A program made the position numbers and the translations under genes. A DNA stretch of 64,000 nt from an uncultured Nitrospiraceae bacterium (GTDB taxonomy: Bacteria > Nitrospirota > Thermodesulfovibrionia > Thermodesulfovibrionales > Dissulfurispiraceae): NCBI GenBank assembly GCA_963705105.1, contig CAVPIW010000009.1:294896-358895 (forward strand), written 5' to 3'. This document shows, piece by piece, positions 3,734 through 38,888 of the stretch. How positions within the stretch are numbered: position 1 is the first letter of the stretch; each line of letters starts with the position of its first letter. The notes under the pieces were generated by a model. The model saw only the letters and a list, made by a program, of their open reading frames with translations. It was not told the DNA's origin and ran no database searches.

Positions 3734-3887
3734 GAAAGGCGGGGCGAAGCACTCTGAAAACAGTGTCAGTGTGAGTGTCAGTGTCGGAAAAGATGTCCAA
3801 TTCTCCTGACATCGGCTTATGCCTCGTCTTCTGTCACGATACAGGTGTCGCCGCAGCAAGGTTTTCGGCGCATACGCCCCGCCTTTC
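3734..3887. repeat. Miniature inverted-repeat element (GAAAGGCGGGGCG termini) containing an AGTGTC/AGTGTG tract
   Basis: GAAAGGCGGGGCG...CGCCCCGCCTTTC; same arms in inverted orientation at 38725-38888. Confidence 0.7.
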
Positions 3888-8562: not shown

Positions 8563-11500
8563 CTACGGGAGCACCCTGAAGACTCCCCACATGCCGGTGA
8601 ACCGGGCCGAGGGGTCCTGAGCGCCGTAGTAGTAGTCGCCGGGGATGCCGAAGGCGCCGCCGGCGCCGTGCTCGAGGATGAAGTCGAAGAAGTTGGCCCC
8701 ACCGAAGCCGTCCTGGCTGCCCACCTTCTGCGAGAACGGGTTGTCGCCGATCCTCACGGAGGCGAGGAAGTCGGTCTTGCCGTCTCCGTCAAAGTCGAAC
8801 TCCTGCCCTATGTAAGGTGTGCGCTGCCAGAGATGGCCGTGCACCTTCGGCGTGTGGGCCCGCCTCGATCCTCCGCCGGGCTCCACGAAGTGGAACCGCA
8901 CGGGATCGCCCGCCTCGGCCGTCATGATCGGCGTCTGAGCCTCGCCGCCTACCTGACTGTTGCTGTAGACCCTCGCAGTGTTGACGATGCCAGCCTGCGC
9001 CTCCAGCGGCAGGTGCGGCGGGAATGCCGCGAGCCTGAACCACTCGGGCTCGGTCCGGTAATTGATCGCGGAGTGGCCCGAATCCTCGTCGTCAGCCGCA
9101 GCTCCGCCGCCTTCGGCCTTGAAGTTCTGGACGGCCCGGATCCGCTGCGATGCGGGGACGCCGGCGTCCACATTGGCGTAATGCAGGTTCACACCCCTCT
9201 GCGTGACGGCGACGAAATCACGGAACTCACCGTTACCGTTCTCGCACTCCGCCTGGGCGCGGGTGTTGGAGTCGTTTTCACACTGCGTTCCCTGAGGCAG
9301 GATCACGAGAGCGCCCACGAGCCCCTTGTTCACCTGCTTGAGCTTGTCCGCAGGGAGCAGGCCGACTGCGCCGAACTCGATCGGCACAGGCACCAGGTCG
9401 ACTAGCCTCTGGCCCAGGTTGTTCAGGCCGAGGGGCCTCACGCCGATGTGTCCGGCGTACCACTGATAGTTGACCACGCCGCCGGGCGCCGCAGTCTGGA
9501 TCCTGTTGTTTCCGACGTTCGTGCCGTCGCCGGCATTCACGTCGTACGCCAGCAGTTGCGTGTGCAACCCGGCGTGGCTCGAAGGTATTACGTCATTGGC
9601 GTTGAAAGTGAAGAGCTCAAGGATACCCTGGGGATTCCTCTGGGCGAACCTGTTTATCACTCCGGGATACATGGTCCAGCCGTCGAGATCGAAGTTCTGG
9701 GCAGGCATCCTGTTCCTCAGCGTCACCTCGATGCAGTCTCCGGCGTTCGCCCTCAGCACAAGGGGCTCCACCGGCGCGCCGGACCTGAGCGTCCCGTCAG
9801 CCAGGAGGTCCGCCGTCGGCACATACATCAGCGCCGCCGGATCATGGAGCGGGCCCTGGCCGCCGAGCAGCCTTTCTCCGCCCTCACCCACGATGTCGGG
9901 GATCCGCGTCGGCCTGGAGTTGTAGACGAGCGACGTAATCGTCGTCCCGTCCGTCAGCCGCACCTGGTGGGCCGGGTTGTTCCTCAGGGCCGTCCGGGCC
10001 GGCACCGCCGTGATGTCGAATGTCTTCCTCGGCGCGCCGACCGGGCAGATGCCCCTGAAGGCCCTTTGGTTGTTGATGACCACCGGGTCGGGCCCGACCT
10101 GGTTGTTCGGCAACTGCACAAGGTTGTTCTGCCGCACGTTGTAGGCCCTCATCAGGCCCCAGGTGCCGGTCCAGTTCCCCGCGTTCGTGGTGTCCGAGGC
10201 GTAGTAGTAGTCCACGGTTTCCAGCTGGCCCGGGAGCTGAATCATGACGGGCGTGTTGAACTGGAACTGCTCGGAGATGCCCATGGACTGGGCGTTCCTG
10301 AAGCCCGACGCCGGGTCGGCATAGTTCATCAGCCACTTCACGCCGTGGATCGAGAAGACGTGAGACTCCTCGTGGGCGCCCACCTGGGCTCTCACCCTCA
10401 CCTGGTCACCCTCGTAAGTCCTCATCATCGGCGTCGCCGGGTCGAAGTTGCCCACGCCCTGGCTGAGCCGCGCCCTTTGCGCGTCGATGATCTCAGGCGA
10501 AAAGAACTGGGCGTATCTGCCGGCACCGGTGAGGAGTTCGTTGCCCACGTTTTGGACGAATCCCCTCGGGTCGGCGAAGTTGAAGGCCAGGTCTCCCAGG
10601 CCTGCGTGATTCGGCAGAATACCGCCGAGGTTGGTGATACCGCTACCCGGAGGGTTGAGCGTCGTCGGGTCATGGATCACCGGGTTGAACTGCCTGACAT
10701 AGGACCGGATCGGAGCGTTCAGCTCGGGGTTCACCCGGGGAATGGAGGCAAAGGCATAGGCGAGGTCTCCCGCCTGTCCCAGAGCCTGGGCCCCGCGCCT
10801 GCCGTCGAAGGGGCTGATGCGGTTCCGGTCGAAGACCCTCAGGCCGACCGGCTCGTTCCGGTAGTTGACGACGAAGGTGCCTTCATCGGATGCCGTGATC
10901 GCCTCGGGGCAGGGCCTCGGGATGATCACGCCGGGAGGCGCCGGGCAGATACCCGGGATGGTGATGATCGGGTGCATCGGCACGGCGTCGACCCTGTGCG
11001 ATACGTTGATCGCCTGCAGGAAGCTGTCACTGTCGACCCTGCCGTCCCAGTCGCGCTCGTAGGCATGCTGGAAGTCGCTGAACTCGAAGTAGAACTCGCG
11101 GAAGCTGTCCCTCGGGTCCGGCGGAAGGATAACCGCCTGCCACGACGTGGGGCCGCCGTCCTGACGGTTGCCGAGGGTCACGCCCGTTTCGTTGTGTCTC
11201 CACACCGAACCGGCCGGCTCTGCGAGCACCGTTGCGTAAAGCCCGATCTGCTGAAATGTCGACGGACCGAAATGGTCGTGGGTAAAGGAGTTGTTAAAGC
11301 CCCGGTCGTTGCCCTGGAGGTCCAGGACGGGGTCCGCCATCCAGCGCTGGATCGTCGTCCTCGCGCCGAGGGTGCTCATCGGCACCCTGCCCTCGAGCTC
11401 GGGGTGCGCCTGCGGTGTCAGCTGAGCGTGCTGGTTGTTGAGGTCGAGCAGTCCTCCGCCCGCGTTGATCGCACGGATGCGCTCCAGCACCTCGCCGGGG

Positions 11501-14448
11501 CTGAAGGTGCCGTCCTCATAGTTCCAGCCGTTGGCCGCGCCGTCGGCGGAGGACACATCAAATTTCGGCATGTGCACGTGCTGGCCGATGATATCGGTGG
11601 GGAACCTGATCTGGTAGTCGTCCAGCTCGTTCTGATGGTGCGCGAGATTCGTATGCCAGATCTCGGCGCAGTCCAGGGTGTTCATGCGGAAGACCATGGG
11701 CTCGGCAGGTCTCCTGCCTGCGTAGGTGTCGGCGATGTCGTCCCACAGGGTGATGATGCGCTGCTGCGGGTAGTGCCAGCCCACCTTGTTGAAGACGAGG
11801 TCGATCATGATGTTGGCGACCTTATAGACCCTCGGGTTCTGGTCTCCGAAGGTGACCGGCACGGGGTTGCCCCTGCCGTCTTTGACCTGGAAGACAGGCT
11901 CTCCGTTCTGGTTGTTCCACAGCGGAGTGCTTCCGGCTCTAACCGCATTGCCGGCGTTGTCCACGCAGGGGTCGGCAAAAGGCGCGCCGCGCACGGGCGG
12001 GCGGCCGTTGGTGATGAACGGCGCCGTCGTTCCCTCGGGGGTGAGGGTGTTGCGCGACCGGACGGCATGGAAGTCCATGGCCGCAATCTCGTCGGCCGTG
12101 CCGCCCTCAGGGAACTGCTCGGCCTCGACACTCTCAAGCTCTGCGGTCAGGTCAAGACGGGTCACCACGAAGGCCCTCTCTCCGCCGGTAATGACGTGCC
12201 TCGGCAGTCCGCCGTCATGCAGGATGTCCAGCGGAGGCGTCGGCGGCCTGTGGCCCGCGTACCCGGCTACCCAGAAGGGGAAGCCGGGGTTGTTCTGGAC
12301 GTTGCCCGCTATGGGTTGACCCGGTACAACCGTGAGGACCTTGCGGGGGTCGTCGGGGTCGACAGTCGCCAGTATGGGCATCGGTGCCATCGCGTACAGC
12401 GGCATCGGCACAACAGCCGGTATGGGCGTGCCGGTGCAGAGACCGTCGAACCTCGCCCCCGTGCCGGTGACACAGGCGCCGTTGACGGCGTTCGGCTTCA
12501 CTTCACCGTCGGGATAAGCCCTCGATCCTATGAGCGGTTTTGAGAACCTGAGTGTCCAGGGATCACGGTTGATCTCGTCCTGAAACACGATGTTGAAGCG
12601 CTTCAGCCTTGCCATGTTCGTCTGGCAGAAGGCGGGGTCGGCCGGGTTGGCGATGGCCGGGTTGCAGGGGACAAGCCTGGCGCCCTGGACCACTGTTCCT
12701 TCTTCAAACACATCGTGGACGCGCCACAACGCCCACATGCCCATGGCGAAGTGGGGATAGAAGTGGCAGTGATAGATGGCGTCGCCCGGGGTCTTGTGCC
12801 GGTTGCCGCCTCCCCCGTTCACCGTGTCCATGGTGTAGCCGGAGCCCGGAGAGACCTGCTGCATGTCCTGGTAGTTGGCCTTGTCGCTCTGGGGATTGAA
12901 GACCCACTGGTGGGCATGGAGGTGGAAGATGTGGTGCTCGAAAGGCCCCGCATGGACGTTGCGGAACTTCACGTGATCGTTCAGATACGAGTGATGCACG
13001 TTCGCCGGGTCGTCCGGGAAGAGACTCAGCTCGGCGATGGGACCGGCGCCGACGGGCACACCCGTCAGGAAGGGCGCAAACACGGCCGGCGTGTCAGTGA
13101 CGCCTGCGGGGTCGCCGATCGCCCAGGAGGTGAGGAAGAACTCCTCGGCCTTGCACTCGGGGCAGTCCCACATGGGCCCCAGGCCCAGGCGGTTGGCGAT
13201 GATCTCCGATCCGATGCCGCCTGAGGCGTAGTTGATGACGAAGGCATCACGGACGATCTTGAAGGTGTGCACCAGCACCGGGTCCTTGTAGAACTGGGCG
13301 AAGGGCTGCACCGCCACCTGCTCGTCGTTCCAGATCGAGGCGAACTCGCGGAACGGCAGGTGCTGCTGCGGGTTCACAGGTGTTGACCGGTAGTGGTTGC
13401 CCGGGGCGAAGGGGCCGCGGTTCGGACCTGTAATGATCGCGTGGAGGTCCGTATGCACGATCTCACCGGCATAGCCGGCCTTCGGCCTCATCATCTTAAG
13501 GACCGGCAGGCCCGCCTTGCCCTCCTGATTGAAGGGCGTGATCGCCGGGTAAACAGCGTCGTAGTTGACCTTCGGCTGTCCGCCATCGATCTCGGGCCAT
13601 CTCTCCATCACGAACGGCGCAGCGCCGTTCGCATCGGAGGCGAGCAGCATCTCTTCATGCGTCACCTGGCTGCGGTACCACTCGGCCCCTCTGGGCTCGA
13701 CGACAACGGCGCCGAAAAGACCGAAGCCCATGGTGCCGCCGCCGCCCTCGGCGCCGACGGTGGAGCCGACACTGTAGAGGTGGTAGACGTTCTCATACTC
13801 CCCGTAAAGGGTGTAGATCCTTGTCTGGCCGATGGCGGTCAGGCTGCTCCTGTTCCTGCCCACGAAGGACCCGTCGTCGCTGATGTTGTTGACGAGCTGC
13901 ATGCCGTTGACATGGATCGACGCCTCCCGGGTGATGGGCTGGTCGTCGAACTGGATGTTCTTCGGCGCAAAGGCCACCGCGGCCGGTGCAGGGTTCTGCG
14001 GAAGCACCGGCAGGTCCGGCACGGCGTGGCGGAATCCGCCCTCGTTGAAATCAGTGTTCAGGTTAAAGATGAAATCCGGCTGTTTCAGCCAGTTTGTGAA
14101 GCTGATCTCGAGGCAGTCCCCCACGTTCATCCTGAGGATGATGGGCCGCGGCCTCTTGTCGGGACGAAGCGCCACGTTGCCGGCGGAACAGTTCGCGCCC
14201 GGAAGCGTGCAGGGAACAAGGGTACTCTTGTTCACCACGTCACGCTTCAGGGCGTACATCATTCCGTTGGCGTTGACAGCGCCGAGCCTGTTCAGGAAAT
14301 AGGGCTGATCCAGAGCGACAACGTCAGCGAAAACCTTCCGCTCACATTGTGCCGCCACTGTGCTGTCCGGCATTGTCAAGCCGATCAGGAGCCCTAAGAC
14401 CAGCAGGATCACGGTCACTGCCGACCATCTTGTGATCTGGTCTTTCAT
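8563..14448 (-). CDS. Very large multicopper oxidase, MnxG-like (copy 1)
   Basis: About 1960 aa from MKDQ at 14448; signal peptide; Cu motifs HIFHLH, YHCHFYPHFAMGM, QHVH, THDH; size and motif order resemble Pseudomonas-type MnxG. Confidence 0.85.
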   Translation of the reverse strand: MKDQITRWSAVTVILLVLGLLIGLTMPDSTVAAQCERKVFADVVALDQPYFLNRLGAVNANGMMYALKRDVVNKSTLVPCTLPGANCSAGNVALRPDKRPRPIILRMNVGDCLEISFTNWLKQPDFIFNLNTDFNEGGFRHAVPDLPVLPQNPAPAAVAFAPKNIQFDDQPITREASIHVNGMQLVNNISDDGSFVGRNRSSLTAIGQTRIYTLYGEYENVYHLYSVGSTVGAEGGGGTMGFGLFGAVVVEPRGAEWYRSQVTHEEMLLASDANGAAPFVMERWPEIDGGQPKVNYDAVYPAITPFNQEGKAGLPVLKMMRPKAGYAGEIVHTDLHAIITGPNRGPFAPGNHYRSTPVNPQQHLPFREFASIWNDEQVAVQPFAQFYKDPVLVHTFKIVRDAFVINYASGGIGSEIIANRLGLGPMWDCPECKAEEFFLTSWAIGDPAGVTDTPAVFAPFLTGVPVGAGPIAELSLFPDDPANVHHSYLNDHVKFRNVHAGPFEHHIFHLHAHQWVFNPQSDKANYQDMQQVSPGSGYTMDTVNGGGGNRHKTPGDAIYHCHFYPHFAMGMWALWRVHDVFEEGTVVQGARLVPCNPAIANPADPAFCQTNMARLKRFNIVFQDEINRDPWTLRFSKPLIGSRAYPDGEVKPNAVNGACVTGTGARFDGLCTGTPIPAVVPMPLYAMAPMPILATVDPDDPRKVLTVVPGQPIAGNVQNNPGFPFWVAGYAGHRPPTPPLDILHDGGLPRHVITGGERAFVVTRLDLTAELESVEAEQFPEGGTADEIAAMDFHAVRSRNTLTPEGTTAPFITNGRPPVRGAPFADPCVDNAGNAVRAGSTPLWNNQNGEPVFQVKDGRGNPVPVTFGDQNPRVYKVANIMIDLVFNKVGWHYPQQRIITLWDDIADTYAGRRPAEPMVFRMNTLDCAEIWHTNLAHHQNELDDYQIRFPTDIIGQHVHMPKFDVSSADGAANGWNYEDGTFSPGEVLERIRAINAGGGLLDLNNQHAQLTPQAHPELEGRVPMSTLGARTTIQRWMADPVLDLQGNDRGFNNSFTHDHFGPSTFQQIGLYATVLAEPAGSVWRHNETGVTLGNRQDGGPTSWQAVILPPDPRDSFREFYFEFSDFQHAYERDWDGRVDSDSFLQAINVSHRVDAVPMHPIITIPGICPAPPGVIIPRPCPEAITASDEGTFVVNYRNEPVGLRVFDRNRISPFDGRRGAQALGQAGDLAYAFASIPRVNPELNAPIRSYVRQFNPVIHDPTTLNPPGSGITNLGGILPNHAGLGDLAFNFADPRGFVQNVGNELLTGAGRYAQFFSPEIIDAQRARLSQGVGNFDPATPMMRTYEGDQVRVRAQVGAHEESHVFSIHGVKWLMNYADPASGFRNAQSMGISEQFQFNTPVMIQLPGQLETVDYYYASDTTNAGNWTGTWGLMRAYNVRQNNLVQLPNNQVGPDPVVINNQRAFRGICPVGAPRKTFDITAVPARTALRNNPAHQVRLTDGTTITSLVYNSRPTRIPDIVGEGGERLLGGQGPLHDPAALMYVPTADLLADGTLRSGAPVEPLVLRANAGDCIEVTLRNRMPAQNFDLDGWTMYPGVINRFAQRNPQGILELFTFNANDVIPSSHAGLHTQLLAYDVNAGDGTNVGNNRIQTAAPGGVVNYQWYAGHIGVRPLGLNNLGQRLVDLVPVPIEFGAVGLLPADKLKQVNKGLVGALVILPQGTQCENDSNTRAQAECENGNGEFRDFVAVTQRGVNLHYANVDAGVPASQRIRAVQNFKAEGGGAAADDEDSGHSAINYRTEPEWFRLAAFPPHLPLEAQAGIVNTARVYSNSQVGGEAQTPIMTAEAGDPVRFHFVEPGGGSRRAHTPKVHGHLWQRTPYIGQEFDFDGDGKTDFLASVRIGDNPFSQKVGSQDGFGGANFFDFILEHGAGGAFGIPGDYYYGAQDPSARFTGMWGVFRVLP

Positions 14449-17046: not shown

Positions 17047-20000
17047 CTACTGCACCCTGAACAGGCCCCAGCTTCCCTCGTATCCGTGCACCGGGCTCTG
17101 CATGCGGTACAGATAGTCTCCCGCAACCCCGAAGGGCCCGCCCGCCGGCACCACCGGGATGAAGTTCCAGTGCGACGCCGGACCGTAGCCTTCCTGGGAA
17201 CCAACCACCTGCGACTGCGGGTTGAGGCCGATCACCGCCGACTCTGCTCCTCCGAACGGAGTCTGGTGCGGTATCCGCTGCCACGGATGACCATGGATCA
17301 CCGGAACTGCAGACCTTTGGTTTCCGGTGGGTTCCACGAAGTAGAACCTGAAGTTCTGGCCCCTCGTCGCCCTGAAGATCGGCGTTTGCGGCTCTGCGTT
17401 CACCTGACGGTTGCTGTAAAGGGCTCCCGTCGGGAAAGACTGCTGACCGTTCGGACCATTAACCGGTGTGGAAGGGGCCATTCTCAGCCTGAACCAGTAA
17501 GGCTCGGACCGGTAGTTGACCGCCTTTATCCCGCTGTCCTCGGCGTCCTCAGGATAGCCGATTATGGGGTCGACAGGCTCCATGCCGGGGACGGACCTGA
17601 ACTGGAAACGCGGATCAGGATCGGGATTGGCGAACTTCATGTTCACCGCCGACTGCGTGACCGCCACGAATTCGCGGTAGCTCTGACCGCCCGCAACAGC
17701 ACAGTTCGCCTGCGCCCTCGTGCCTGCATCGGGTATGCATCTCGATCCCCTCGGCTCGATCATGAGTGCGCCGATAAGACCCTTCGACGCCTGCTCCAGC
17801 TTGTCTGCGGGGCTGAGACCCACGACGCCGAACTCGATCGGCCGCGGGATCAGGCTGACCAGAGGCGCACCTTCTGACGTCGTCCCGAGACGCTCCACCT
17901 GGAAATCGCCGGCGTACCAGCGGTATTTCACCGTCCCGCCGGGAGGCGCAGTCTGGACAGGGTTGCTGCCCACGTTCGTGCCGTCCTGGGTAAAGGTGTC
18001 AGCGGCCACCAATTGAGCATGGAGACCGACATGGCTGGACGGCACGATGTCGTTGGAGTTGAATGACGTCTTCCGCGCAGGCGCCGTGACCGGACAGCCT
18101 CCATTGGGACAGAGGTCGATGACCGGATCATAAGTCAGCGCAAGGCTGAAGAGATCGGGCACCACGTTCGGCAGCCTGTTCCTCAGAGTTACATCTATGC
18201 AGTCCCCTGCGTTCGCCCTCAGGATCAGGGGCTCAGGCCTGAGCGTCCCGTTGCGGAGGGCCGGCAGGTCCGTTGTCTGCACATAGAGGATCGCCGTCGG
18301 GTCGTGAAGCGGTCCCTGGCCCCCGGGGATAACCTGAGCGGGCTCGCCAGGCGCAGCAGGAATGATATTGTCCGGCACAACCGTCGTGCGGGCGTTGTAA
18401 ATGAGCGTCGAGACGCCGTTGACCCTCGTGGGCAAGGGGATATCGGCGGCCCGGATTGCCGTGACATCGTATCTCCTCACCGGTGCGTTCTCAGGACAGA
18501 CGCCGTCCTCGAATTCGTCGAAGTCCTCCTTGTTCACCACCTCGATGGGCCTGTTGCCCGCGATGCTGCCGGGCAGGGGGGCAAGGTTCGTCCTCAACTG
18601 GTTGTATGCCCTCATCAGGCCCCAGGTCCCAGTCCAAAGACCGGTACTCGACATGTTCGTGGAGTAAAGGAAATCGACCTGGCGCTGGGCCCCCTCGGAA
18701 ACGAGATCCCCCAGCACCGGGAAGTCGAACTGGAACTGCTCGGAAATGCCCATGGACTGGAAGTTCCGCCAGCCCGAGTTCGGATCGGCGTAATTCATGA
18801 GCCACTTGGCGCCGTGCAACGAGAAGTGGTGAGATTCCTCGGTGGCGCCTACCTGATACCTGATCTTGACCTTGTCGCCTTCGTAGACCCTCATCATGGG
18901 TGTTCCGGGGTCGAGGGGACCCACGTCCGCGGAGATCTGCGGGCAGGGAAGCTCAGGCCCTATGCCTGCCGGTGTCGGGTTCGGCAAAGGAGACAGCAGG
19001 CCGGCTACCACGAAGGGATCAAGACCGCCTGTACCTTCGCCGGGTTTGGCGATGCAGCTCGGGCACTGGATCGTTCTCCTCACGCAGGAGGGTATCTGAA
19101 TGTTGAGTTCGGGGTCAGCCCTCTGGATCGAGGCGAAGGCGAAGCCGAGATCACCGGGACGTCCCGCGGCCTGTGTCAGTCTTACGGGGTCGAAGATGCG
19201 GGCGCCGACAGGCTCGCTCCGATAATTCACGACAAAGGTACCGAGGTCTGCGCCGCCGATACCCATCGGACAGGGCCTTGGCACGCCGCCCGGGCAGATA
19301 TTCTCAAAGGCATAGCTGTGTACGAGATCTGCAGCTCTCGGGGTGGGGTGCACCGCATCGAGGAAGCTGACCGTACTGACACTGCCTCCCCAGCTCCTCT
19401 TGTAGGACTGCTGGAAGTCGCTGCTCTCGAAGTAGAACTCACGGAACGGGTCCTTGTTGAAGTGGCCCGAGTTGGCCGGCGGGATGATCTGGGCCTGCCA
19501 TGACGTCGGGCCGCCGTCGTTGGTGAGCACGTCCACGGGCCCCACGCGGGTTGCGAGGGGCGCGCCGGTCTCGTTGTGTCTCCACTGCGAGCGGGCCGGC
19601 TCTACGAGGATGGTCGCGTAGAGACCGAGCTGCTGGAAGGTGGAAGGACCGAGATGGTCATGAGTGAAAACGTTGCCGACACCCCGGTCGATGCCCTGGC
19701 TGTCGAACACTGGGTCGGCAAACCAGCGCTGGACCGTCGTCCTGGCGCCGCAGGTCTTGCCGGAGCAGCCCGCAACGCCGACCGTCTGGAAGGGCAGGTC
19801 CTGGTTCTCGAAGAACGGGTGCGTCTCCGCCGTAAGAGTCTGGCGGATGGGCGTTCCGTCAGGATTGTGCCCGACGATGAGGCCTTTGGCGCGATTGATC
19901 GCGATGATGCGCTCAGCCACCTCGCCGGGGCTCATCGTGCCGTCCTCATAGTTCCAGAGGTTCGCAGCGCCGTCAGCGGAGGACATGTCGAACTTCTCCA

Positions 20001-22842
20001 TATGTGTGTGCTGGGCGATGATGTCGGTGGGTGTCCTTACCTGGAAGTCGTCGAGTTCGAAGAAGTTCGGCACGAGGTTGCTGTGCCACGCCTGTGCGCA
20101 GTCCAGCGTGTTGAGCCGGAACACCATCGGCTCCGCCGGTTTCTTGCCCGAGTACAGGTCAGCCACGTCGCCCCAGAGGGCGACGATCCTCTGCTGCGGC
20201 ATGTGCCAGCCTTTCTTGTTCAGGACGACGTCGATCTGCATGGCCGTGATCTTATAGGGCCTCGGCTGGTCGCCGCCAAACTCAGCCGTCACAGGCAGCG
20301 TGAAGCCGGTGCATGCAGGGTTCGGGTTGTCGTCCCTCGCTATGGAGCATTCAGGACTATTCCAGATCGGTGTCGAGCCCGTATTGACGGGGTTGCCCAT
20401 GTTGTCCACGCAAGGGTCGGCATGAGGGGAGCCGGGTTGCGGCGGCAGGCCGTTGGTTATGAATCCGCCCCTGAAAGGCTTGCCGAGCGCATTAAGGGCC
20501 GCTGTGTCACAGACAGCGGCGAAACCGTCAGGGTAAAAGGTGTCGTGGCACCTGTTCTCGTGGAATGCGAAAGAAGCCAGCTCAGACGCGGAACCCGTCT
20601 CAGGGACGAGCTCAGCCTCGACGTGTTCGAGCTCCTTGTTGATATCGAATCTCGTGAGGGCCGAGATCGCCGTGCCGCCGGTGATTACGTGTCTCGGCAG
20701 CCCGCCGTCGTGGACAAGGTCAAGGGGCGGCGAGGGCGGCCGGTGTCCGGCGACGCCGGCGATGTAAAACGGAAAGCCGGGGTTCTTCTCCGGGTTGCCG
20801 ATCACAGGAACTGTCGTGTCAACGATAACCCTCCTCGGGTCGACAGGATCGACGAAAGACGGCTGCGGCATCGGCGCCATCGGGAACATCGGGATCGGGA
20901 CGACGCCGGGCACGGGTGTGCCGGTGCAGAGACCGTCGAAGTTGGGGTCCTCAAGACAGGTCCCCTGACCCGGGACAGCTGCCACCCTGACCTCGCCATC
21001 CGGATAGGCCCGCGAGCCCCTCGCCGGAGGAGCATCGCGCAGCGCCCAGGGCAAACGAACACCCTGTGCGTTCTTCCTCGGGTTCAGAACGGTGCCCTCG
21101 GCGAAGACGTCGAGCATCCTCAGCGATGACCACATGCCCTGAGCGAAGTGAGGATAGAAGTGGCAGTGGTAGATCGCGTCGCCGGGGCTGGCGTTGCGGT
21201 TGCCGACGCCCTCATTCACGATGTCAAAAGTGTAGGCGCTGCCAGGCCCGATCTGCTGCATATCCATGTAGTTGGCCTTGTCGCTTTTGGGCGAGAAGAC
21301 CCACTGGTTCCCATGCAGATGGAAGATGTGGTGCTCGAAGGGACCTGCATGGATATTTCTGAACTTGAAGTGGTCACGGATGTAGGCGTGGTGCACCGTG
21401 GAAGGATCATCGGGGAATATGGCAGCCGTCGCCTTCGGCCCGGGGGTGAGATCGCAGGCGATCGGTGACGCTCCCTCACGGGCGCCTGTCTCGGGCGTGA
21501 TGGCAGGGCTCACCGCGACGCCGCCCACCAGCGGCCGGTTGTTCTGCACGCAGCCGTTGGCAGGCAGATCCACCCACATGCCGGGATCGCCCACCGCCCA
21601 GGAGGTGAGGAAGAACTCCTCAGCCTTGCACTCGGGGCAGTCCCACATGGGACCGACGCCGAGCCTGTTGGCGATGATCTCGGGACCGATGGCGCCACTG
21701 GCGTAGTTGATCACGAAGCCGTCCTTCGTAATCGCAAGGGTGTGCTTCAGTACCGGGTTCGTAAAGAAAAACGGGAAGGACTGGACGTTAAAGTGCTCAT
21801 CACCAAACACCGAGGCGCTGTCCCTGAAAGGAAGGTCCTGTCTCGGGTTCGTCGCTGTCGACGGGTAGGTTGAGCCTGCGACGAACTTCCCCTTGTTCGG
21901 GCCTGTGATGACCGCATTGACATCACTGTGCACAAGTTCGACAGTAGTGCCCTGCTTCACGCAGACACCGGCCGATGCCGCAGCCGGCGTGCAGAGCATG
22001 CTCAGCACCGGCAGGTTGGCCTTGTTCTCGCTGATGAAGGGCTGCTGGTTGGGATAGCTGGCGTCGTAGTTGATGATCGGGTGTCCGTCCGGGGCGGTGC
22101 CGGAAGTCGCCAGGGTCATGTCCTCATTCGTCACGTGGCTCCGGTAGTACTCAGCCGCAGCCCCCGCATTCCCGGGGATGCCCGGCTCGACGATCACCAC
22201 GCCGTACAGGCCGAAGGTGAGAGTACCGCCTGCGCCTTCGGCGCCCGTCGTGGCGCCCATGTTCGTGATCATATACACGTTTTCGTCAATCGCGTAATAG
22301 GTGTATGTCCTTCTTCCGCCCGGCGCGACGAGGCTCGAACCGTTCTGCCCGACAAAGGAGCCGTCGCTCGAGATGCCTCCGACAAGCGGCAGGCCCGTGA
22401 CGTGGGCCGATGCCTCCCGCGTGACCGGCTGCTCGTTCGGGTCGATCGGCGCAGCCCTCAGAAGGTTCCTGAAGTTGATCTGGAGACAGTCGCCCTTGCT
22501 CACGCGGAGCGAGATGGGACGGGGCCTCTTGTCGGGCCGCAGCACCACCTGTCCGGGCTGGCAATTCACCCCGGACTTATTGCAGGGCTGTCCGATGAAC
22601 TCGCCCTGGGCATTGAACGCGTTCGTATACACATCACGTTCGAGCGCGTAGATCATGCCCAAATTGTTGAGAGACCCGAGCCTGTTCAGGAAAAAGTTCT
22701 GATCCAGGGCTACTACGTTGGCAATGACCGTTCGGGTGCAGGTCTGGGCATTTGCTCCGTCCGGCACTGCCAGACCGGCCAGAAGCCCTAAGACCAGCAG
22801 GACCGTGGTCACCGTCGACCATCTTGTGATTTGGTCTTTCAT
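17047..22842 (-). CDS. Very large multicopper oxidase, MnxG-like (copy 2)
   Basis: 1931 aa; signal peptide; HIFHLH, YHCHFYPHFAQGM, QHTH, THDH; colinear with copy 1. Confidence 0.85.
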   Translation of the reverse strand: MKDQITRWSTVTTVLLVLGLLAGLAVPDGANAQTCTRTVIANVVALDQNFFLNRLGSLNNLGMIYALERDVYTNAFNAQGEFIGQPCNKSGVNCQPGQVVLRPDKRPRPISLRVSKGDCLQINFRNLLRAAPIDPNEQPVTREASAHVTGLPLVGGISSDGSFVGQNGSSLVAPGGRRTYTYYAIDENVYMITNMGATTGAEGAGGTLTFGLYGVVIVEPGIPGNAGAAAEYYRSHVTNEDMTLATSGTAPDGHPIINYDASYPNQQPFISENKANLPVLSMLCTPAAASAGVCVKQGTTVELVHSDVNAVITGPNKGKFVAGSTYPSTATNPRQDLPFRDSASVFGDEHFNVQSFPFFFTNPVLKHTLAITKDGFVINYASGAIGPEIIANRLGVGPMWDCPECKAEEFFLTSWAVGDPGMWVDLPANGCVQNNRPLVGGVAVSPAITPETGAREGASPIACDLTPGPKATAAIFPDDPSTVHHAYIRDHFKFRNIHAGPFEHHIFHLHGNQWVFSPKSDKANYMDMQQIGPGSAYTFDIVNEGVGNRNASPGDAIYHCHFYPHFAQGMWSSLRMLDVFAEGTVLNPRKNAQGVRLPWALRDAPPARGSRAYPDGEVRVAAVPGQGTCLEDPNFDGLCTGTPVPGVVPIPMFPMAPMPQPSFVDPVDPRRVIVDTTVPVIGNPEKNPGFPFYIAGVAGHRPPSPPLDLVHDGGLPRHVITGGTAISALTRFDINKELEHVEAELVPETGSASELASFAFHENRCHDTFYPDGFAAVCDTAALNALGKPFRGGFITNGLPPQPGSPHADPCVDNMGNPVNTGSTPIWNSPECSIARDDNPNPACTGFTLPVTAEFGGDQPRPYKITAMQIDVVLNKKGWHMPQQRIVALWGDVADLYSGKKPAEPMVFRLNTLDCAQAWHSNLVPNFFELDDFQVRTPTDIIAQHTHMEKFDMSSADGAANLWNYEDGTMSPGEVAERIIAINRAKGLIVGHNPDGTPIRQTLTAETHPFFENQDLPFQTVGVAGCSGKTCGARTTVQRWFADPVFDSQGIDRGVGNVFTHDHLGPSTFQQLGLYATILVEPARSQWRHNETGAPLATRVGPVDVLTNDGGPTSWQAQIIPPANSGHFNKDPFREFYFESSDFQQSYKRSWGGSVSTVSFLDAVHPTPRAADLVHSYAFENICPGGVPRPCPMGIGGADLGTFVVNYRSEPVGARIFDPVRLTQAAGRPGDLGFAFASIQRADPELNIQIPSCVRRTIQCPSCIAKPGEGTGGLDPFVVAGLLSPLPNPTPAGIGPELPCPQISADVGPLDPGTPMMRVYEGDKVKIRYQVGATEESHHFSLHGAKWLMNYADPNSGWRNFQSMGISEQFQFDFPVLGDLVSEGAQRQVDFLYSTNMSSTGLWTGTWGLMRAYNQLRTNLAPLPGSIAGNRPIEVVNKEDFDEFEDGVCPENAPVRRYDVTAIRAADIPLPTRVNGVSTLIYNARTTVVPDNIIPAAPGEPAQVIPGGQGPLHDPTAILYVQTTDLPALRNGTLRPEPLILRANAGDCIDVTLRNRLPNVVPDLFSLALTYDPVIDLCPNGGCPVTAPARKTSFNSNDIVPSSHVGLHAQLVAADTFTQDGTNVGSNPVQTAPPGGTVKYRWYAGDFQVERLGTTSEGAPLVSLIPRPIEFGVVGLSPADKLEQASKGLIGALMIEPRGSRCIPDAGTRAQANCAVAGGQSYREFVAVTQSAVNMKFANPDPDPRFQFRSVPGMEPVDPIIGYPEDAEDSGIKAVNYRSEPYWFRLRMAPSTPVNGPNGQQSFPTGALYSNRQVNAEPQTPIFRATRGQNFRFYFVEPTGNQRSAVPVIHGHPWQRIPHQTPFGGAESAVIGLNPQSQVVGSQEGYGPASHWNFIPVVPAGGPFGVAGDYLYRMQSPVHGYEGSWGLFRVQ

Positions 22843-23079: not shown

Positions 23080-23157
23080 CCTGCCTGTCACGCGCCACTG
23101 TCCTGATTGTCTGCCATTCTGTCATGCCCCTCTCATATCCCGGCGCGGCAGGGAGAC
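23080..23157. promoter_or_regulatory. Putative upstream activator block
   Basis: Conserved with 14712-14790. Confidence 0.6.
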
Positions 23158-23195
23158 AACAGTGTGAGTGTCAGTGTAAGTGGTGGAAGACTGCG

Positions 23196-24197
23196 TCAGT
23201 ACCCTTCCAGAATGAAGTCCGAAAAGACGATCTGGTATGTTGCGATGAGGGCATAGGCGGAGAAGAGGAGCACCGCCGTCAGCGCCAGCTTCCTCTGGAT
23301 CTGCGGCAGCGCCTGAGAAAGGCTCCCGATCTTCCTGAAGGGCATGATCATCCCGACTCCCATGCCGGACACCCCTCCTCCGAGCAGGGTGACATAGAGA
23401 AAATACCCCACATACCCGTACTCCTTCTGGAGGATGCAGAAGGGGCAATGGTGCGTCGGCAGCTCGTAGAAATAGAGACAGATGAAGGAGATGAGGGCCG
23501 CGATGGAGATGAAAAACGTGGCCGTGCTCAGAAGAGAAAAAAAGTAGACCCCCCTTCCCCGGAGATAGAAAACGGCCCCTGTCAGGACCGTCAGGGCCAT
23601 CGTCGTGTAGAAGGCGACCTTCATGGGTATCCTCGGCAGGGACGCAATGGACGACGATATCCCCTCACGATCCGTCGTGAAGAGGGCGCCGCAGCAGGAT
23701 GTGATGACATCCGGCTTGAGACTGAGGAAGTAGGCCGCCTGGAGCGCTGCCTCGGCGAGGACGAGAGGTGTGATCGCGATGAGAAGGATGTATTTTTTTC
23801 TGATGAGAGGGTAATCGAAGGCCCGGTTGTCGGTATGGTTGAGGATGAGCCAGAGTCCGGCAAGGAGGAAATTGACGCCTTTTATGATGATCGTCGGGTA
23901 CCCGAACTCGTTCACGTTCAGGGTGCCGGCGGCGCACATGGCGCCGACGAAGAGGCTGTGGATGGTGTCGGCGGTGAAGATGAAGAGGAAGAGCGAGAGG
24001 AGCTGAAACCCGAAGGCGTAGCTCATGACCGTCGAAATGAGGTAGGTCCTGCGCTCGAGGCCGAGCTGCAGCTCGCTGCCGCTCCTGATGTCCCAATGCC
24101 GGAGAATGCGGATGCCGTAGTAGGAAGAATAGAGGAGCATGAGGCCGGTGAGGAGAGAGCCCAGGAGAAGGGCGATGATGGCGGGATGAAAAATCAC
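23196..24197 (-). CDS. Polytopic membrane protein with Cys/His motifs
   Basis: Many hydrophobic segments; GAMCAAG, TSCCG, PTHHCPFC; start overlaps the ABC ATPase stop. Confidence 0.8.
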   Translation of the reverse strand: MIFHPAIIALLLGSLLTGLMLLYSSYYGIRILRHWDIRSGSELQLGLERRTYLISTVMSYAFGFQLLSLFLFIFTADTIHSLFVGAMCAAGTLNVNEFGYPTIIIKGVNFLLAGLWLILNHTDNRAFDYPLIRKKYILLIAITPLVLAEAALQAAYFLSLKPDVITSCCGALFTTDREGISSSIASLPRIPMKVAFYTTMALTVLTGAVFYLRGRGVYFFSLLSTATFFISIAALISFICLYFYELPTHHCPFCILQKEYGYVGYFLYVTLLGGGVSGMGVGMIMPFRKIGSLSQALPQIQRKLALTAVLLFSAYALIATYQIVFSDFILEGY

Positions 24198-24880
24198 GGT
24201 GTCACCCCCGGATCGGTGATCCTGCCGTCTCTCATGGTCACCACGCGGTCGATGATATCGGCGTCATGAACGATCGGGTCGTGGCTGGCGATGATGACCG
24301 TCTTGCTCCGCTCCTTCAGGATCTTCATCGTTTCCATGAATTCGTGGGAGAGCTTCGTATCGAGGTGCGCCGTCGGCTCATCGGCGATGACGACGGCGGG
24401 ATCGTTGATGAGGGCCCGGGCGATGGCGACCCGCTGGGTCTCCCCACCCGAGAGCCACTCGACCTTCGACGAGGCCTTCGGGGCGAGGTCGAAGTGATCG
24501 AGCAGCGTCAGCGCCCTCTGCCGGAGAGCGCCGTAGCTTTCTCCTGTCGGATAGGACGGCAGCATGACATTCTCGACGGCGGTGAGCCCCCTGATGAGAT
24601 GGAACTGCTGGAAGATGAACCCGAAGGTCTTCCGCCTGATCTCGGTGAGGAACCGCTCGGGCAGGCTCGTGATCTCGCGGTCAAGGAGCATGATCCTGCC
24701 CGACGTGGGCCTCGCCATGCATCCCAGGATGCTCAGGACCGTCGTCTTGCCCGAGCCGCTCGGCCCCTTGAGCACGGTGATCCTTTCAGAGTCGATGACG
24801 AGATCGATCCCGTCGACGGCGACGAACTCGTTCGGCTTTCCCTGGTTGAAGACCTTCCGTATACCTGTGAGCTGGATCAT
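24194..24880 (-). CDS. ABC transporter ATP-binding protein (LolD/MacB-like)
   Basis: GPSGSGKT Walker A, LSGGE signature, IADEPT Walker B, SHD. Confidence 0.92.
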   Translation of the reverse strand: MIQLTGIRKVFNQGKPNEFVAVDGIDLVIDSERITVLKGPSGSGKTTVLSILGCMARPTSGRIMLLDREITSLPERFLTEIRRKTFGFIFQQFHLIRGLTAVENVMLPSYPTGESYGALRQRALTLLDHFDLAPKASSKVEWLSGGETQRVAIARALINDPAVVIADEPTAHLDTKLSHEFMETMKILKERSKTVIIASHDPIVHDADIIDRVVTMRDGRITDPGVTP

Positions 24881-25015
24881 TTCATTAGTGTAAGTGTGAG
24901 TGTGAGTTCGTGGATCATTTTTGTCCTTATAGTGTGAGTGTAAGTGTGAGTGTGAGTTCGCGGATCATTTTTGTCCTTATAGTGTGAGTGTGAGTTCGTG
25001 GATCATTTTTGTCCT
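24874..25015 (+). repeat. Tandem array of GGATCAT(TTTTGTCCTTAT)-(AGTGTG)n-AGTTCG units
   Basis: GGATCAT at 24874, 24912, 24962, 25000; unit lengths 38/50/38. Confidence 0.9.
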
Positions 25016-25392
25016 ATATGTTTCAATGATCGTATCAAACCGTGAAGCATCTTCGTTATTTCATCCGTCATATCCCGCAGGTGGTCATGTTCTTTTGTTG
25101 TCAAGAATCCCAGGTCTTTTGCCAAAAGCAAATGATACTTTAATTCGCCCGCCGATCCTCTGGCAATACCTCCAAAATGCTGATATTCTTTTCTGTTAGA
25201 CCTGTAACTTCCTTCCATCAGATTCGAGCCGATGGATGACGCCGCACGCCTCATCTGCGACACGAGATTGAATCTCTCATCGGCCGGAAAGGTCGTTGTC
25301 AGTTCATAAATCCTGATCGTCAAGCGATGAGCTTTCTTAAATACCCCCAAATCTTCAACGCTCTCAACACCAACAAAATCTTCTACACCCAT
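25003..25392 (-). CDS. Four helix bundle protein (23S rRNA IVS-protein / Avd-like family)
   Basis: EDLGVFKKAH..T..IY..T..FPADERFNLVSQMRRAASSIGSNLMEG..R...KEY.HF..IARGS..EL.Y.L.LAKDLGFL; AT-richer than neighbours; ATG at 25392 preferred over the repeat-derived start. Confidence 0.85.
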   Translation of the reverse strand: MGVEDFVGVESVEDLGVFKKAHRLTIRIYELTTTFPADERFNLVSQMRRAASSIGSNLMEGSYRSNRKEYQHFGGIARGSAGELKYHLLLAKDLGFLTTKEHDHLRDMTDEITKMLHGLIRSLKHIGQK

Positions 25393-25404
25393 TAGCCTAT
25401 TACT

Positions 25405-25680
25405 TTCACTCACACTGTCCTTATCACCTTTCACTCGCACTCGCACTCACACTCACACTGTCCTTATCACCTTTCACTCGCACTCACACTCTCACTCACA
25501 CTGTCTTCCCTTCTTCCTTCACTCGCACTCACACTCACACTCACACTGTCTTTCCTTCTTCCTTCACTCGCACTCACACTCACACTCACACTGTCTTTCC
25601 TTCTTCCTTCACTCGCACTCACACTCACACTCACACTGTCTTTCCTTCTTCCTTCACTCGCACTCACACTGTCTTTCTTC
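25405..25680 (-). repeat. Tandem array of about 7 GACAGTGTG(AGTGTG)nAGTGCGAGTGAA units
   Basis: Plus strand (CACACT)n-GTC units with spacers CTTATCACCT (x2) or TT(T/C)CCTTCTTCC (x4); 45-bp period in the middle. Confidence 0.9.
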
Positions 25681-26824
25681 ACCCTCTCATGACCGTGTCG
25701 GGATCGACCGTCGCCGCCCTCCAGGAGGGGACGATCGTCGCGACGGTATAGGGGACGACGATGAGAAAGAAAAGCGTCGACACCTGGTACGGGCTCAGGC
25801 GTGGAATGAGCCGGAACGGCGGATAGAGGACCGACCACCCCTTCAGGGCGGGGGCGAACAAAGATGCCGATGTGAAATAGATATGCGCATACGCGAGGGC
25901 GACACCGATGAAGAACGACGCCAGCGAGATGACCGCCCCCTCCCAGAATTTCATTTGGAGCACATCCGACGTCTCCCAACCCACGGCCTTGAGAATGCCG
26001 ATCTCCTTCTTCTCCTCAGCGCTCAGACCTGTGGCCTTGTCCCAGGCAAGAATGATGAATGCCATAACGGCGCAGGACAGCACGATGATGACCATTCCCC
26101 CTCTCCAGTCGAAAACCGCGTCATAGGTCCGCTGCATCTCTTCTTTTGTCAGAGGCCGCGTGTCGGGGAGGAGTTGGGTGATCTTCGCGGCGATTGTCGA
26201 CCTCTCCCTGATGTTTCTGACCTTGAGGGCGAGATCGGTGGCGTGTCCTTCCGGCAGGCCGAAGATGGTCACGAAATCATCCCTCGACAGGCGGATCATG
26301 CCGGCCGACAGGACTTCCGACTCCGCGGGGAAGACTTCCCTGATCCTGAGAGACTGAATCTTCCCGTCATGGGTCGTCACAGGCATCGTTCCGCCGACGG
26401 AGGAGACGAGGCTCCTCGCCACACCGCTGCCGATCGTCACCTCTCCCCTCTCATGGGGGAATCGGGGGTCGGCAACGAGAGTGTAATTGAACCCGCTCGC
26501 GGGATCGAAGTAATAACCCCAGAGCCGTTCCTCAACGGCGATGACGCCCCTGATCGCCCTGATCGTTTCCATATACCTGACGGGGATGAGATCGTGCCTT
26601 CCTGCAACGAGTCTCTGCACCACGATCTCCGGTGAGTCACGAAGAAGGAGTGCCGCTTCTTCCTTGACGGACTGGGTGAAGAAAACGACGGACGACAGTA
26701 TGAACACCACAAGCGTGTACACGACAAGAAGGGACAGGTTCTTCACCTTTCGCCGAAAGAGGGACGAGAGGGTGTAGTCGAGGATGTTCCGCTGCCTGCC
26801 GGCCCATTTCACCCTACCGGGCAC
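25679..26824 (-). CDS. ABC transporter permease (FtsX/LolE-like)
   Basis: N-terminal TM, periplasmic domain, EIGILKAVGW motif, C-terminal PSWRAATVDP. Confidence 0.88.
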   Translation of the reverse strand: MPGRVKWAGRQRNILDYTLSSLFRRKVKNLSLLVVYTLVVFILSSVVFFTQSVKEEAALLLRDSPEIVVQRLVAGRHDLIPVRYMETIRAIRGVIAVEERLWGYYFDPASGFNYTLVADPRFPHERGEVTIGSGVARSLVSSVGGTMPVTTHDGKIQSLRIREVFPAESEVLSAGMIRLSRDDFVTIFGLPEGHATDLALKVRNIRERSTIAAKITQLLPDTRPLTKEEMQRTYDAVFDWRGGMVIIVLSCAVMAFIILAWDKATGLSAEEKKEIGILKAVGWETSDVLQMKFWEGAVISLASFFIGVALAYAHIYFTSASLFAPALKGWSVLYPPFRLIPRLSPYQVSTLFFLIVVPYTVATIVPSWRAATVDPDTVMRG

Positions 26825-31180: not shown

Positions 31181-31213
31181 GACAGTGTGAGTGTGAGTGT
31201 CAGTGTGAGTGAA
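31181..31213 (+). repeat. Solo GACAGTGTG(AGTGTG)n-AGTGAA tract
   Basis: Begins immediately after the cls stop codon; same unit type as the 25405-25680 array. Confidence 0.8.
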
Positions 31214-38724: not shown

Positions 38725-38888
38725 TCCGGAAAGACGGGGCGAATGCGCCGAAAAGCATCGGTGCTGCGAAACCTCTGCCTTCCCGTACAGACCATTGCAG
38801 ACCAACGATCGAACAAAATTAACCTTTTACTGACACTCACACTGACACTGACACTGTTTTTCGGAGCGTTTTGCCCCGCCTTTCCGGA
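38725..38888. repeat. Miniature inverted-repeat element with CACACT/GACACT tract
   Basis: TCCGGAAAGACGGGGCGAA...TTGCCCCGCCTTTCCGGA termini. Confidence 0.75.

Follow-up and report, generated by a model that had tools for sequence, protein, structure and literature searches.

A four-helix-bundle gene with complementary hexamer arms between two ABC transporter genes, a member of an apparently undescribed class related to rRNA intervening sequences

Genes and repeat arms at the locus

The window, by which is meant the whole stretch of 64,000 nt that was analysed, carries an insert of 798 nt between an ABC permease gene and an ABC ATPase gene, with both host genes on the minus strand. Read along that strand, the permease is followed by a 286-nt spacer, a 129-aa ORF, a 122-nt spacer and then the ATPase, and each of the spacers holds an array of hexamer cores, referred to here as an arm. 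The features are as follows:

25679..26824, minus strand: FtsX-type ABC permease gene, the upstream host (PF02687 match; orthologues found in relatives)
25407..25670, minus strand: 5' arm, seven higher-order units with G-rich AGTGTG/AGTGCG hexamer cores
25003..25392, minus strand: four-helix-bundle gene, 129 aa (PF05635 / TIGR02436)
24887..24995, minus strand: 3' arm, three units with C-rich CACACT cores
24877..25006, minus strand: three tiny ORFs (9, 13 and 13 codons) within the 3' arm, weak candidates for a coupling relay
24194..24880, minus strand: ABC ATPase gene, the downstream host, its AUG lacking a Shine-Dalgarno-like word before it
31184..31210, plus strand: gene-less G-rich copy of the word, 3 nt past the stop of a PLD-family gene
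23156..23180, plus strand: gene-less copy past the last gene of the permease-ATPase operon, C-rich on the sense strand and so an exception to the orientation rule described below
3736..3885, plus strand: core of a separate MITE-like element with the word inside

The four-helix-bundle gene has a GC content of 43.8%, compared with 59.2% for the permease and 62.0% for the ATPase, and an in-frame GTG at 25446 offers an alternative start. Its product scores well above the cut-offs of both family models (PF05635, 125.3 bits against 33.8; TIGR02436, 120.7 against 24), and the preliminary description of this DNA, in which an AT-richer four-helix-bundle ORF splits a permease from its ATPase, is therefore upheld. 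The same is true of its statement that no transposase or RT lies nearby, as no match to such families was found among the 43 window ORFs scanned, several of which had no match of any kind and from which atpA and atpD were left out. The four letters TGAA occur at both ends of the cassette, which is too short to exceed chance as a target-site duplication. Elsewhere in the window, two proteins of ~1950 aa (8566-14448 and 17047-22842, minus strand) had no Pfam match at the thresholds used; they lie downstream of the NosL / ABC operon, with a sigma-54 regulator close by, and one of them has His-rich motifs that may resemble those of multicopper oxidases.

The seven units of the 5' flank are spaced at 43–45 nt and the three units of the 3' flank at 38–50 nt, in agreement with the unit counts first given for the AGUGUG and CACACU arrays of the minus strand. 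The first AGTGTG core begins 8 nt past the permease stop, and not 5 nt as had been stated, while the distance of 6 nt from the last CACACT core to the ATPase AUG is correct. The flanks had also been called reverse complements of each other, which applies to the hexamer cores but not to the purine-rich spacers between them. The best inverted pair between the arms is 27 nt long and 93% complementary. Folding of 24850-25720 gave -258.9 kcal/mol (z -4.75, with 0 of 20 shuffles as good), and the arm-to-arm duplex was predicted at -118.1 kcal/mol, against -75.0 ± 5.3 for 100 dinucleotide shuffles, the best of which reached -90. The predicted probability that the three 3' units pair with the 5' flank is 0.85–0.96, and the flanks are thus predicted to pair, as had been proposed. 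The great length of the arms at this locus is the result of local tandem expansion.

Predicted pairing of this kind extends to the homologues. In all 14 AGTG loci (those with arms of the AGTG-type word) for which it could be computed, the arms pair better than shuffles, with no more than 1 of 30 shuffles as good per locus. In a general sample of the family, comprising 38 loci after two had been dropped, the own downstream flank was among the best 4 of 38 pairing partners in 22 loci and ranked worse than 20th in seven. A survey of other four-helix-bundle genes, as suggested in the preliminary description, does find complementary flanks with an orientation bias, both in the general sample and in the AGTG loci. 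The second gene of the family in this genome (G000:C6:828540-828851, minus strand) is also flanked by complementary arms, but these are built from a different hexamer word; its C-rich arm lies upstream and its G-rich arm downstream, which is the reverse of the usual polarity.

Such a duplex could mean that the cassette is an intervening sequence of mRNA, in which RNase III cuts the paired arms and the gene is removed from the operon transcript, whether or not the ends are then rejoined. At 27 bp, the near-perfect stem is similar in length to the 28-bp one that RNase III cuts in the Coxiella intervening sequence (PMC4990558), the protein is of the same family, and RNase III is encoded in this genome. 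The same source, however, describes rRNA intervening sequences as being excised without ligation, so that cutting here would split the operon mRNA and not rejoin it, and as the insert lies between ORFs its removal would be unnecessary. Many homologous arms also give stems of only 10–16 bp, and in an RNA-library contig of a relative the depth over the gene is 9.4, against 7.1–7.5 over the permease, coverage to which carry-over of DNA may contribute. The RNA-labelled runs X18, X19 and X20 contain no joint across the cassette, in contigs so sparse that they cannot show ends. We consider removal from mRNA very unlikely, and excision followed by rejoining has no support.

The arms may also bear on how the ATPase is translated. 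The first tiny ORF of the 3' arm overlaps the stop of the four-helix-bundle gene and the last overlaps the ATPase start, a chain whose chance for this spacer is 0.085. Among 30 loci without a Shine-Dalgarno word such a chain is present in 12, against 6.1 expected, and with four of these coming from the cas1 site the excess is modest and a tiny-ORF relay is not established as a general rule. Given these figures, apposition of stop and start by the stem and a relay of ribosomes could each account for translation of the ATPase. In nine AGTG loci the last word ends 0–6 nt before the downstream AUG and there is no Shine-Dalgarno word, and of the six AGTG loci in which it ends 14–20 nt before the AUG, five do have a Shine-Dalgarno word; in this tally one locus had a misassigned start and two yielded no value. 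Use of the arm stem for coupling the host stop to the host start is a tentative proposal, which we place just short of probable.

The protein and the word of its arms

Structures of PF05635 proteins have been solved since 2006, and to our knowledge no function has been assigned to them. The protein encoded here is predicted to form four helices (pLDDT 91), and the model matches Xcc0516 (2GSC; TM 0.83, rmsd 1.4), BT_0352 and, more weakly, Avd (4DWL; TM 0.71). The structural kinship to Avd of DGRs noted in the preliminary description is thus consistent with the model, though at 9% identity. Xcc0516 is a homopentamer according to the available part of PMC4990558, and by analogy with the five chains of 2GSC a five-subunit ring is predicted for this protein as well. 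Its charged residues comprise 19 K+R, 17 D+E and 7 H, leaving the net charge near neutral.

Homologues were drawn from 301 genomes of the class, which gave 19 other loci, from 200 genomes around a carrier in another phylum, which gave four more, and from metagenomes, which gave 20. Nearly all of the closest homologues have G-rich AGTGTC or AGTGTA arms upstream and the complement downstream. The sister group has the word CGTG, which differs from AGTG by one letter, and the best 30 PF05635 matches of the order carry other words, mostly of seven letters. When the word labels of 70 proteins (19 AGTG, 8 CGTG and 43 other) are placed on a tree, five changes are needed, against 24.1 for shuffled labels, with none of 200 shuffles as low. 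This protein sits on a long terminal branch within an all-AGTG branch of 15 (SH-aLRT 92), and the median protein identity within the AGTG group is 60%. The AGTG label does not form one clade, with three changes on the tree, and since the word patterns were defined after the flanks had been seen and kin share labels, the shuffle count is to be read as clustering and not as co-evolution.

The tree was built from few columns by a quick search, under a model simpler than a mixture model. Duplicates and near-copies (L055, L073-L076, L078, L086-L088 and L133), fragments or gapped loci (L040, L068, L069, L081 and L090) and five loci without a tblastn match, including the second family gene of this genome, were excluded from it. 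A clade member found after the tree had been made, L144, has the predicted arms and serves as an out-of-sample check, and AGTG arms are absent from the 13 non-clade genes checked.

With L144 counted in and the outlier L136 excluded, the 19 AGTG loci lie at 11 junction types. These are the permease-ATPase junction of this locus, the junction on the other side of that permease, upstream of it (L071), six sites with a single locus each, and three with multiple loci, namely cas1 with a 96-aa ORF (five), a kinase-regulator pair (three) and a MOSC-molybdopterin gene pair (three). The presence of the same word around homologues at 11 junction types suggests that gene and repeats likely move together, which fits the earlier reading of the locus as a mobile cassette, and DNA that is not under selection would not be expected to keep the word at ~40% protein divergence. 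Because word and protein lineage co-vary, we lean slightly towards the view that the AGTG-type word of the arms is a recognition site for the protein, as RNA or as single-stranded DNA, for which a pentameric ring that reads a short tandem word would be a natural model.

Two further observations concern the arms of the wider family. Database homologues P0022, P0028, P0031, P0032, P0038, P0050, P0054 and P0088 end in LTLT-type tails that are the translated C-rich arm, and their stop codons therefore lie beyond the arm. Some family genes with word arms are also found among CRISPR-like direct repeats (L042, L050, L056, L064 and L125-L127).

Occupied sites, empty sites and gene-less copies

A permease search among 40 relatives gave 15 orthologous permease-ATPase junctions (48–61% protein identity), and the four-helix-bundle gene is absent from all 15. 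The gap is at most 22 nt in 13 of these junctions, and in the other two it is 138 and 188 nt and contains other short repeat words. Empty sites in related genomes, which the preliminary description had proposed to look for, are thus present in every orthologous operon recovered. The permease-ATPase spacers of L004 and L005 hold gene-less inverted repeats of two other words, which suggests, from sequence, that this junction may be a repeatedly used landing site.

Three close relatives that do carry the gene are represented by contigs of read sets X2, X4 and X3, which cover it at 87–92% identity. The gene is joined to the ATPase in the X2 contig, where the 3' arm is shorter, and to the permease in the X3 contig, where the 5' side is ~119 letters long compared with 301 here. 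Presence of the gene in three relatives indicates that the cassette predates these strains, and the shorter arms in X2 and X3 indicate that arms gain and lose whole units. Synonymous change in the gene is in excess, with 13 synonymous and four non-synonymous codons among the 17 differences listed. A contig of X5 (93% identity on the ATPase) joins the ATPase to the permease across 35 other letters, and the gene has no cover in X5. With only ~30 letters on the permease side of the joint and a spacer that resembles outer arm ends, this is a weak hint of a close empty site, and may instead be a remnant. Further joints of low depth in X3 and X4 are probably derived from other organisms.

There are no near-identical copies of the cassette at different sites, which is to say that no recent move was caught, and the genome has a single cassette of the AGTG clade. 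A clade member at L071:454-1218, on a metagenome contig, shares 63% identity, the same word and the same operon; its cassette occupies the junction that precedes the permease, with an extra hairpin in the 5' spacer. It is very probable, in our judgement, that the gene and its inverted-repeat arms move as one unit between gene junctions.

The word itself is abundant in this genome, where it marks 308 loci, 307 of them outside gene calls. As the gene calls cover only 75% of the genome, and miss the AT-rich four-helix-bundle gene, the term intergenic is slightly overstated. Orientation on the sense strand follows a rule, being G-rich after stops by 58 to 1 and C-rich before starts by 8 to 2. A 16-nt pattern of the word has 467 overlapping matches here, compared with no more than 12 in each of 150 other genomes of the order. 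Such abundance raises the possibility that a common host repeat happened to settle on either side of an AT-rich foreign gene, and the ~308 oriented loci alone do yield inverted pairs in some spacers (15/17). However, homologues in genomes with 0–10 copies of the word are still flanked by it on both sides, and the second family gene here has complementary arms of a different word. Chance is highly improbable as an explanation, and is largely refuted.

In at least 184 of the 307 loci the word is preceded by the left end of a distinct MITE-like family, a lower bound as the pattern missed degenerate copies, and of the remaining 123 loci, 46 lie within 40 nt past a stop. Members of this family are ~200 nt long, with inverted ends, swappable interiors and one AGTG-word array inside; the array comes after 76 of the 84 strict left ends, and within the window the family occurs at 3736-3885 and 38834-38882. 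The genome-wide expansion of the word is therefore mostly not the work of the four-helix-bundle gene, which is rejected as the cause of most of the 308 copies.

The clade gene was detected in 5 of 19 genomes that are word-rich and in 3 of 132 that are word-poor (controls with at most two matches), in a comparison where kin are not independent. It was undetected in 14 of the 19, including the five richest after this one, several of these assemblies being incomplete, and no four-helix-bundle gene was found within ~1 kb of twenty word-bearing loci of other genomes. Word-rich genomes without the gene, together with carriage of the word as MITE cargo, indicate that the repeats persist or spread without it. 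Compact gene-less hairpins of the word stand directly between stop and start at L094, L097, L101, L103, L104, L106 and L108, in genomes of the same order and in what appear by eye to be housekeeping operons.

These data leave room for a cassette that is passive, with gene and arms co-inherited, moving by repeat recombination or hitch-hiking, the arms kept for RNA pairing and the protein doing something else. Hundreds of dispersed copies of the word would supply the homology, the copies in this genome are mostly carried by MITEs, the gene was not detected in 14 of 19 word-rich genomes and there is no linked transposase or RT, yet selection for pairing alone should allow compensatory drift, and the word is instead kept at ~40% divergence in two phyla-level samples. 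The higher frequency of the gene in word-rich than in word-poor genomes (5/19 vs 3/132, with the kinship noted above) also speaks against passivity, and we regard it as unlikely.

In the reading that we prefer, the cassette would land at a stop-start junction and be transcribed with the host operon, and its paired arms would fold it aside and keep the stop and start codons of the host genes close to each other, making the insertion cheap. The protein would bind the word, likely as a scaffold by analogy with Avd, the chemistry of insertion would be provided by the host or by an enzyme acting in trans, and decay would leave gene-less hairpins behind. Taken whole, with movement as a unit, recognition of the arm word by the protein and pairing of the arms in mRNA that makes insertion cheap, this account is favoured on balance, and the cassette is most likely a selfish or nearly neutral unit.

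A bolder version, which is rather doubtful at present, would have the ring read its own word sequence-specifically and mobilise it, with subfamily-specific codes of 6–9 letters, and act without a known transposase domain as the autonomous partner of REPIN-like gene-less hairpins. If true, it would explain intergenic hexamer and heptamer repeats that have long been unexplained, and rRNA intervening sequences would be one special place where the same element inserts. That the word follows the protein lineage, with AGTG and CGTG one letter apart, bears both on the function of PF05635 and on the cause of the repeats. The locus also offers a caution, as copies of the word can multiply as part of another mobile element, with no need for the gene.

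Comparison with known systems

ORF-bearing intervening sequences of 23S rRNA (S23p / PF05635) are described from Coxiella burnetii and Leptospira in the available part of PMC4990558, which also cites the idea that their ORF encoded a component of mobility. The cassette is like them in its patchy distribution and in that a terminal stem of ~27–28 bp encloses an ORF for a member of the same protein family; in our case this complementary stem is a prediction. It differs from them in lying between protein-coding genes, not in 16S or 23S rRNA, and in having arms that are tandem hexamer arrays.

The Avd barrel is a positively charged pentamer; it works with RNA, and cDNA synthesis requires it together with RT (PMC6182149). 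The protein modelled here appears to share its fold (TM 0.71), but differs in its 9% identity, its near-neutral net charge and the lack of an adjacent RT, and it scores below the cut-offs of the Avd profiles (NF033474, 38.4 against 80; PF22296, 37.4 against 40). The sole RT match in the genome is a 512-aa protein on another contig (L131:1141-2679, G000:C14), whose best match, below cut-off on the part scanned, is the Drt4 antiviral/defence model, and which adjoins an IS-like ORF. Membership of a DGR is rejected, given the sub-threshold profiles and the distance of the RT.

In RAYT / REPIN systems a single gene is enclosed by inverted repeats, and gene-less hairpins occur at intergenic positions. 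The cassette works like them in layout and in the occurrence of gene-less hairpins, but the enclosed gene belongs to PF05635 and has no HUH/Y1 domain, and the arms are arrays of a simple word. AGTG arms were not found at the four Y1 transposase genes of this genome in the stretches inspected. RAYT membership is likewise rejected, as the gene lacks the Y1 domain and the Y1 genes lie elsewhere.

Genes of the 23S_rRNA_IVP family have been observed between cas genes (PMC3936711), and five AGTG-clade genes similarly follow cas1. The available part of that paper makes no mention of repeat arms, however, and most AGTG sites are not cas loci.

Intergenic short-word repeats that obey an orientation rule at stops and starts have been reported without a cause. 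The heptamers GGGAATC / GGGGA(C/T)T of Xanthomonas and Nostoc (PMC4692102) and TAACTGA of Beggiatoaceae (PMC4679880) follow the same rule as the word described here, and one of these two papers proposes an unnamed repeat-binding protein as the mobile element, as far as their available parts go. In contrast to these heptamers, the word here is a hexamer and is tied to a named gene clade; the terms "helix bundle" and "intervening" do not occur in the main texts of the two papers, to the extent that these are available. To this picture the present locus adds a hexamer clade, along with close relatives whose arms differ in length.

No description of repeat-armed four-helix-bundle cassettes in operons was found in the literature searched, which mostly excluded subscription journals. 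By the defining features tested, the cassette is not an rRNA intervening sequence, a DGR or a RAYT. It is real and well above chance, and a well-supported member of an apparently undescribed cassette class related to rRNA intervening sequences.
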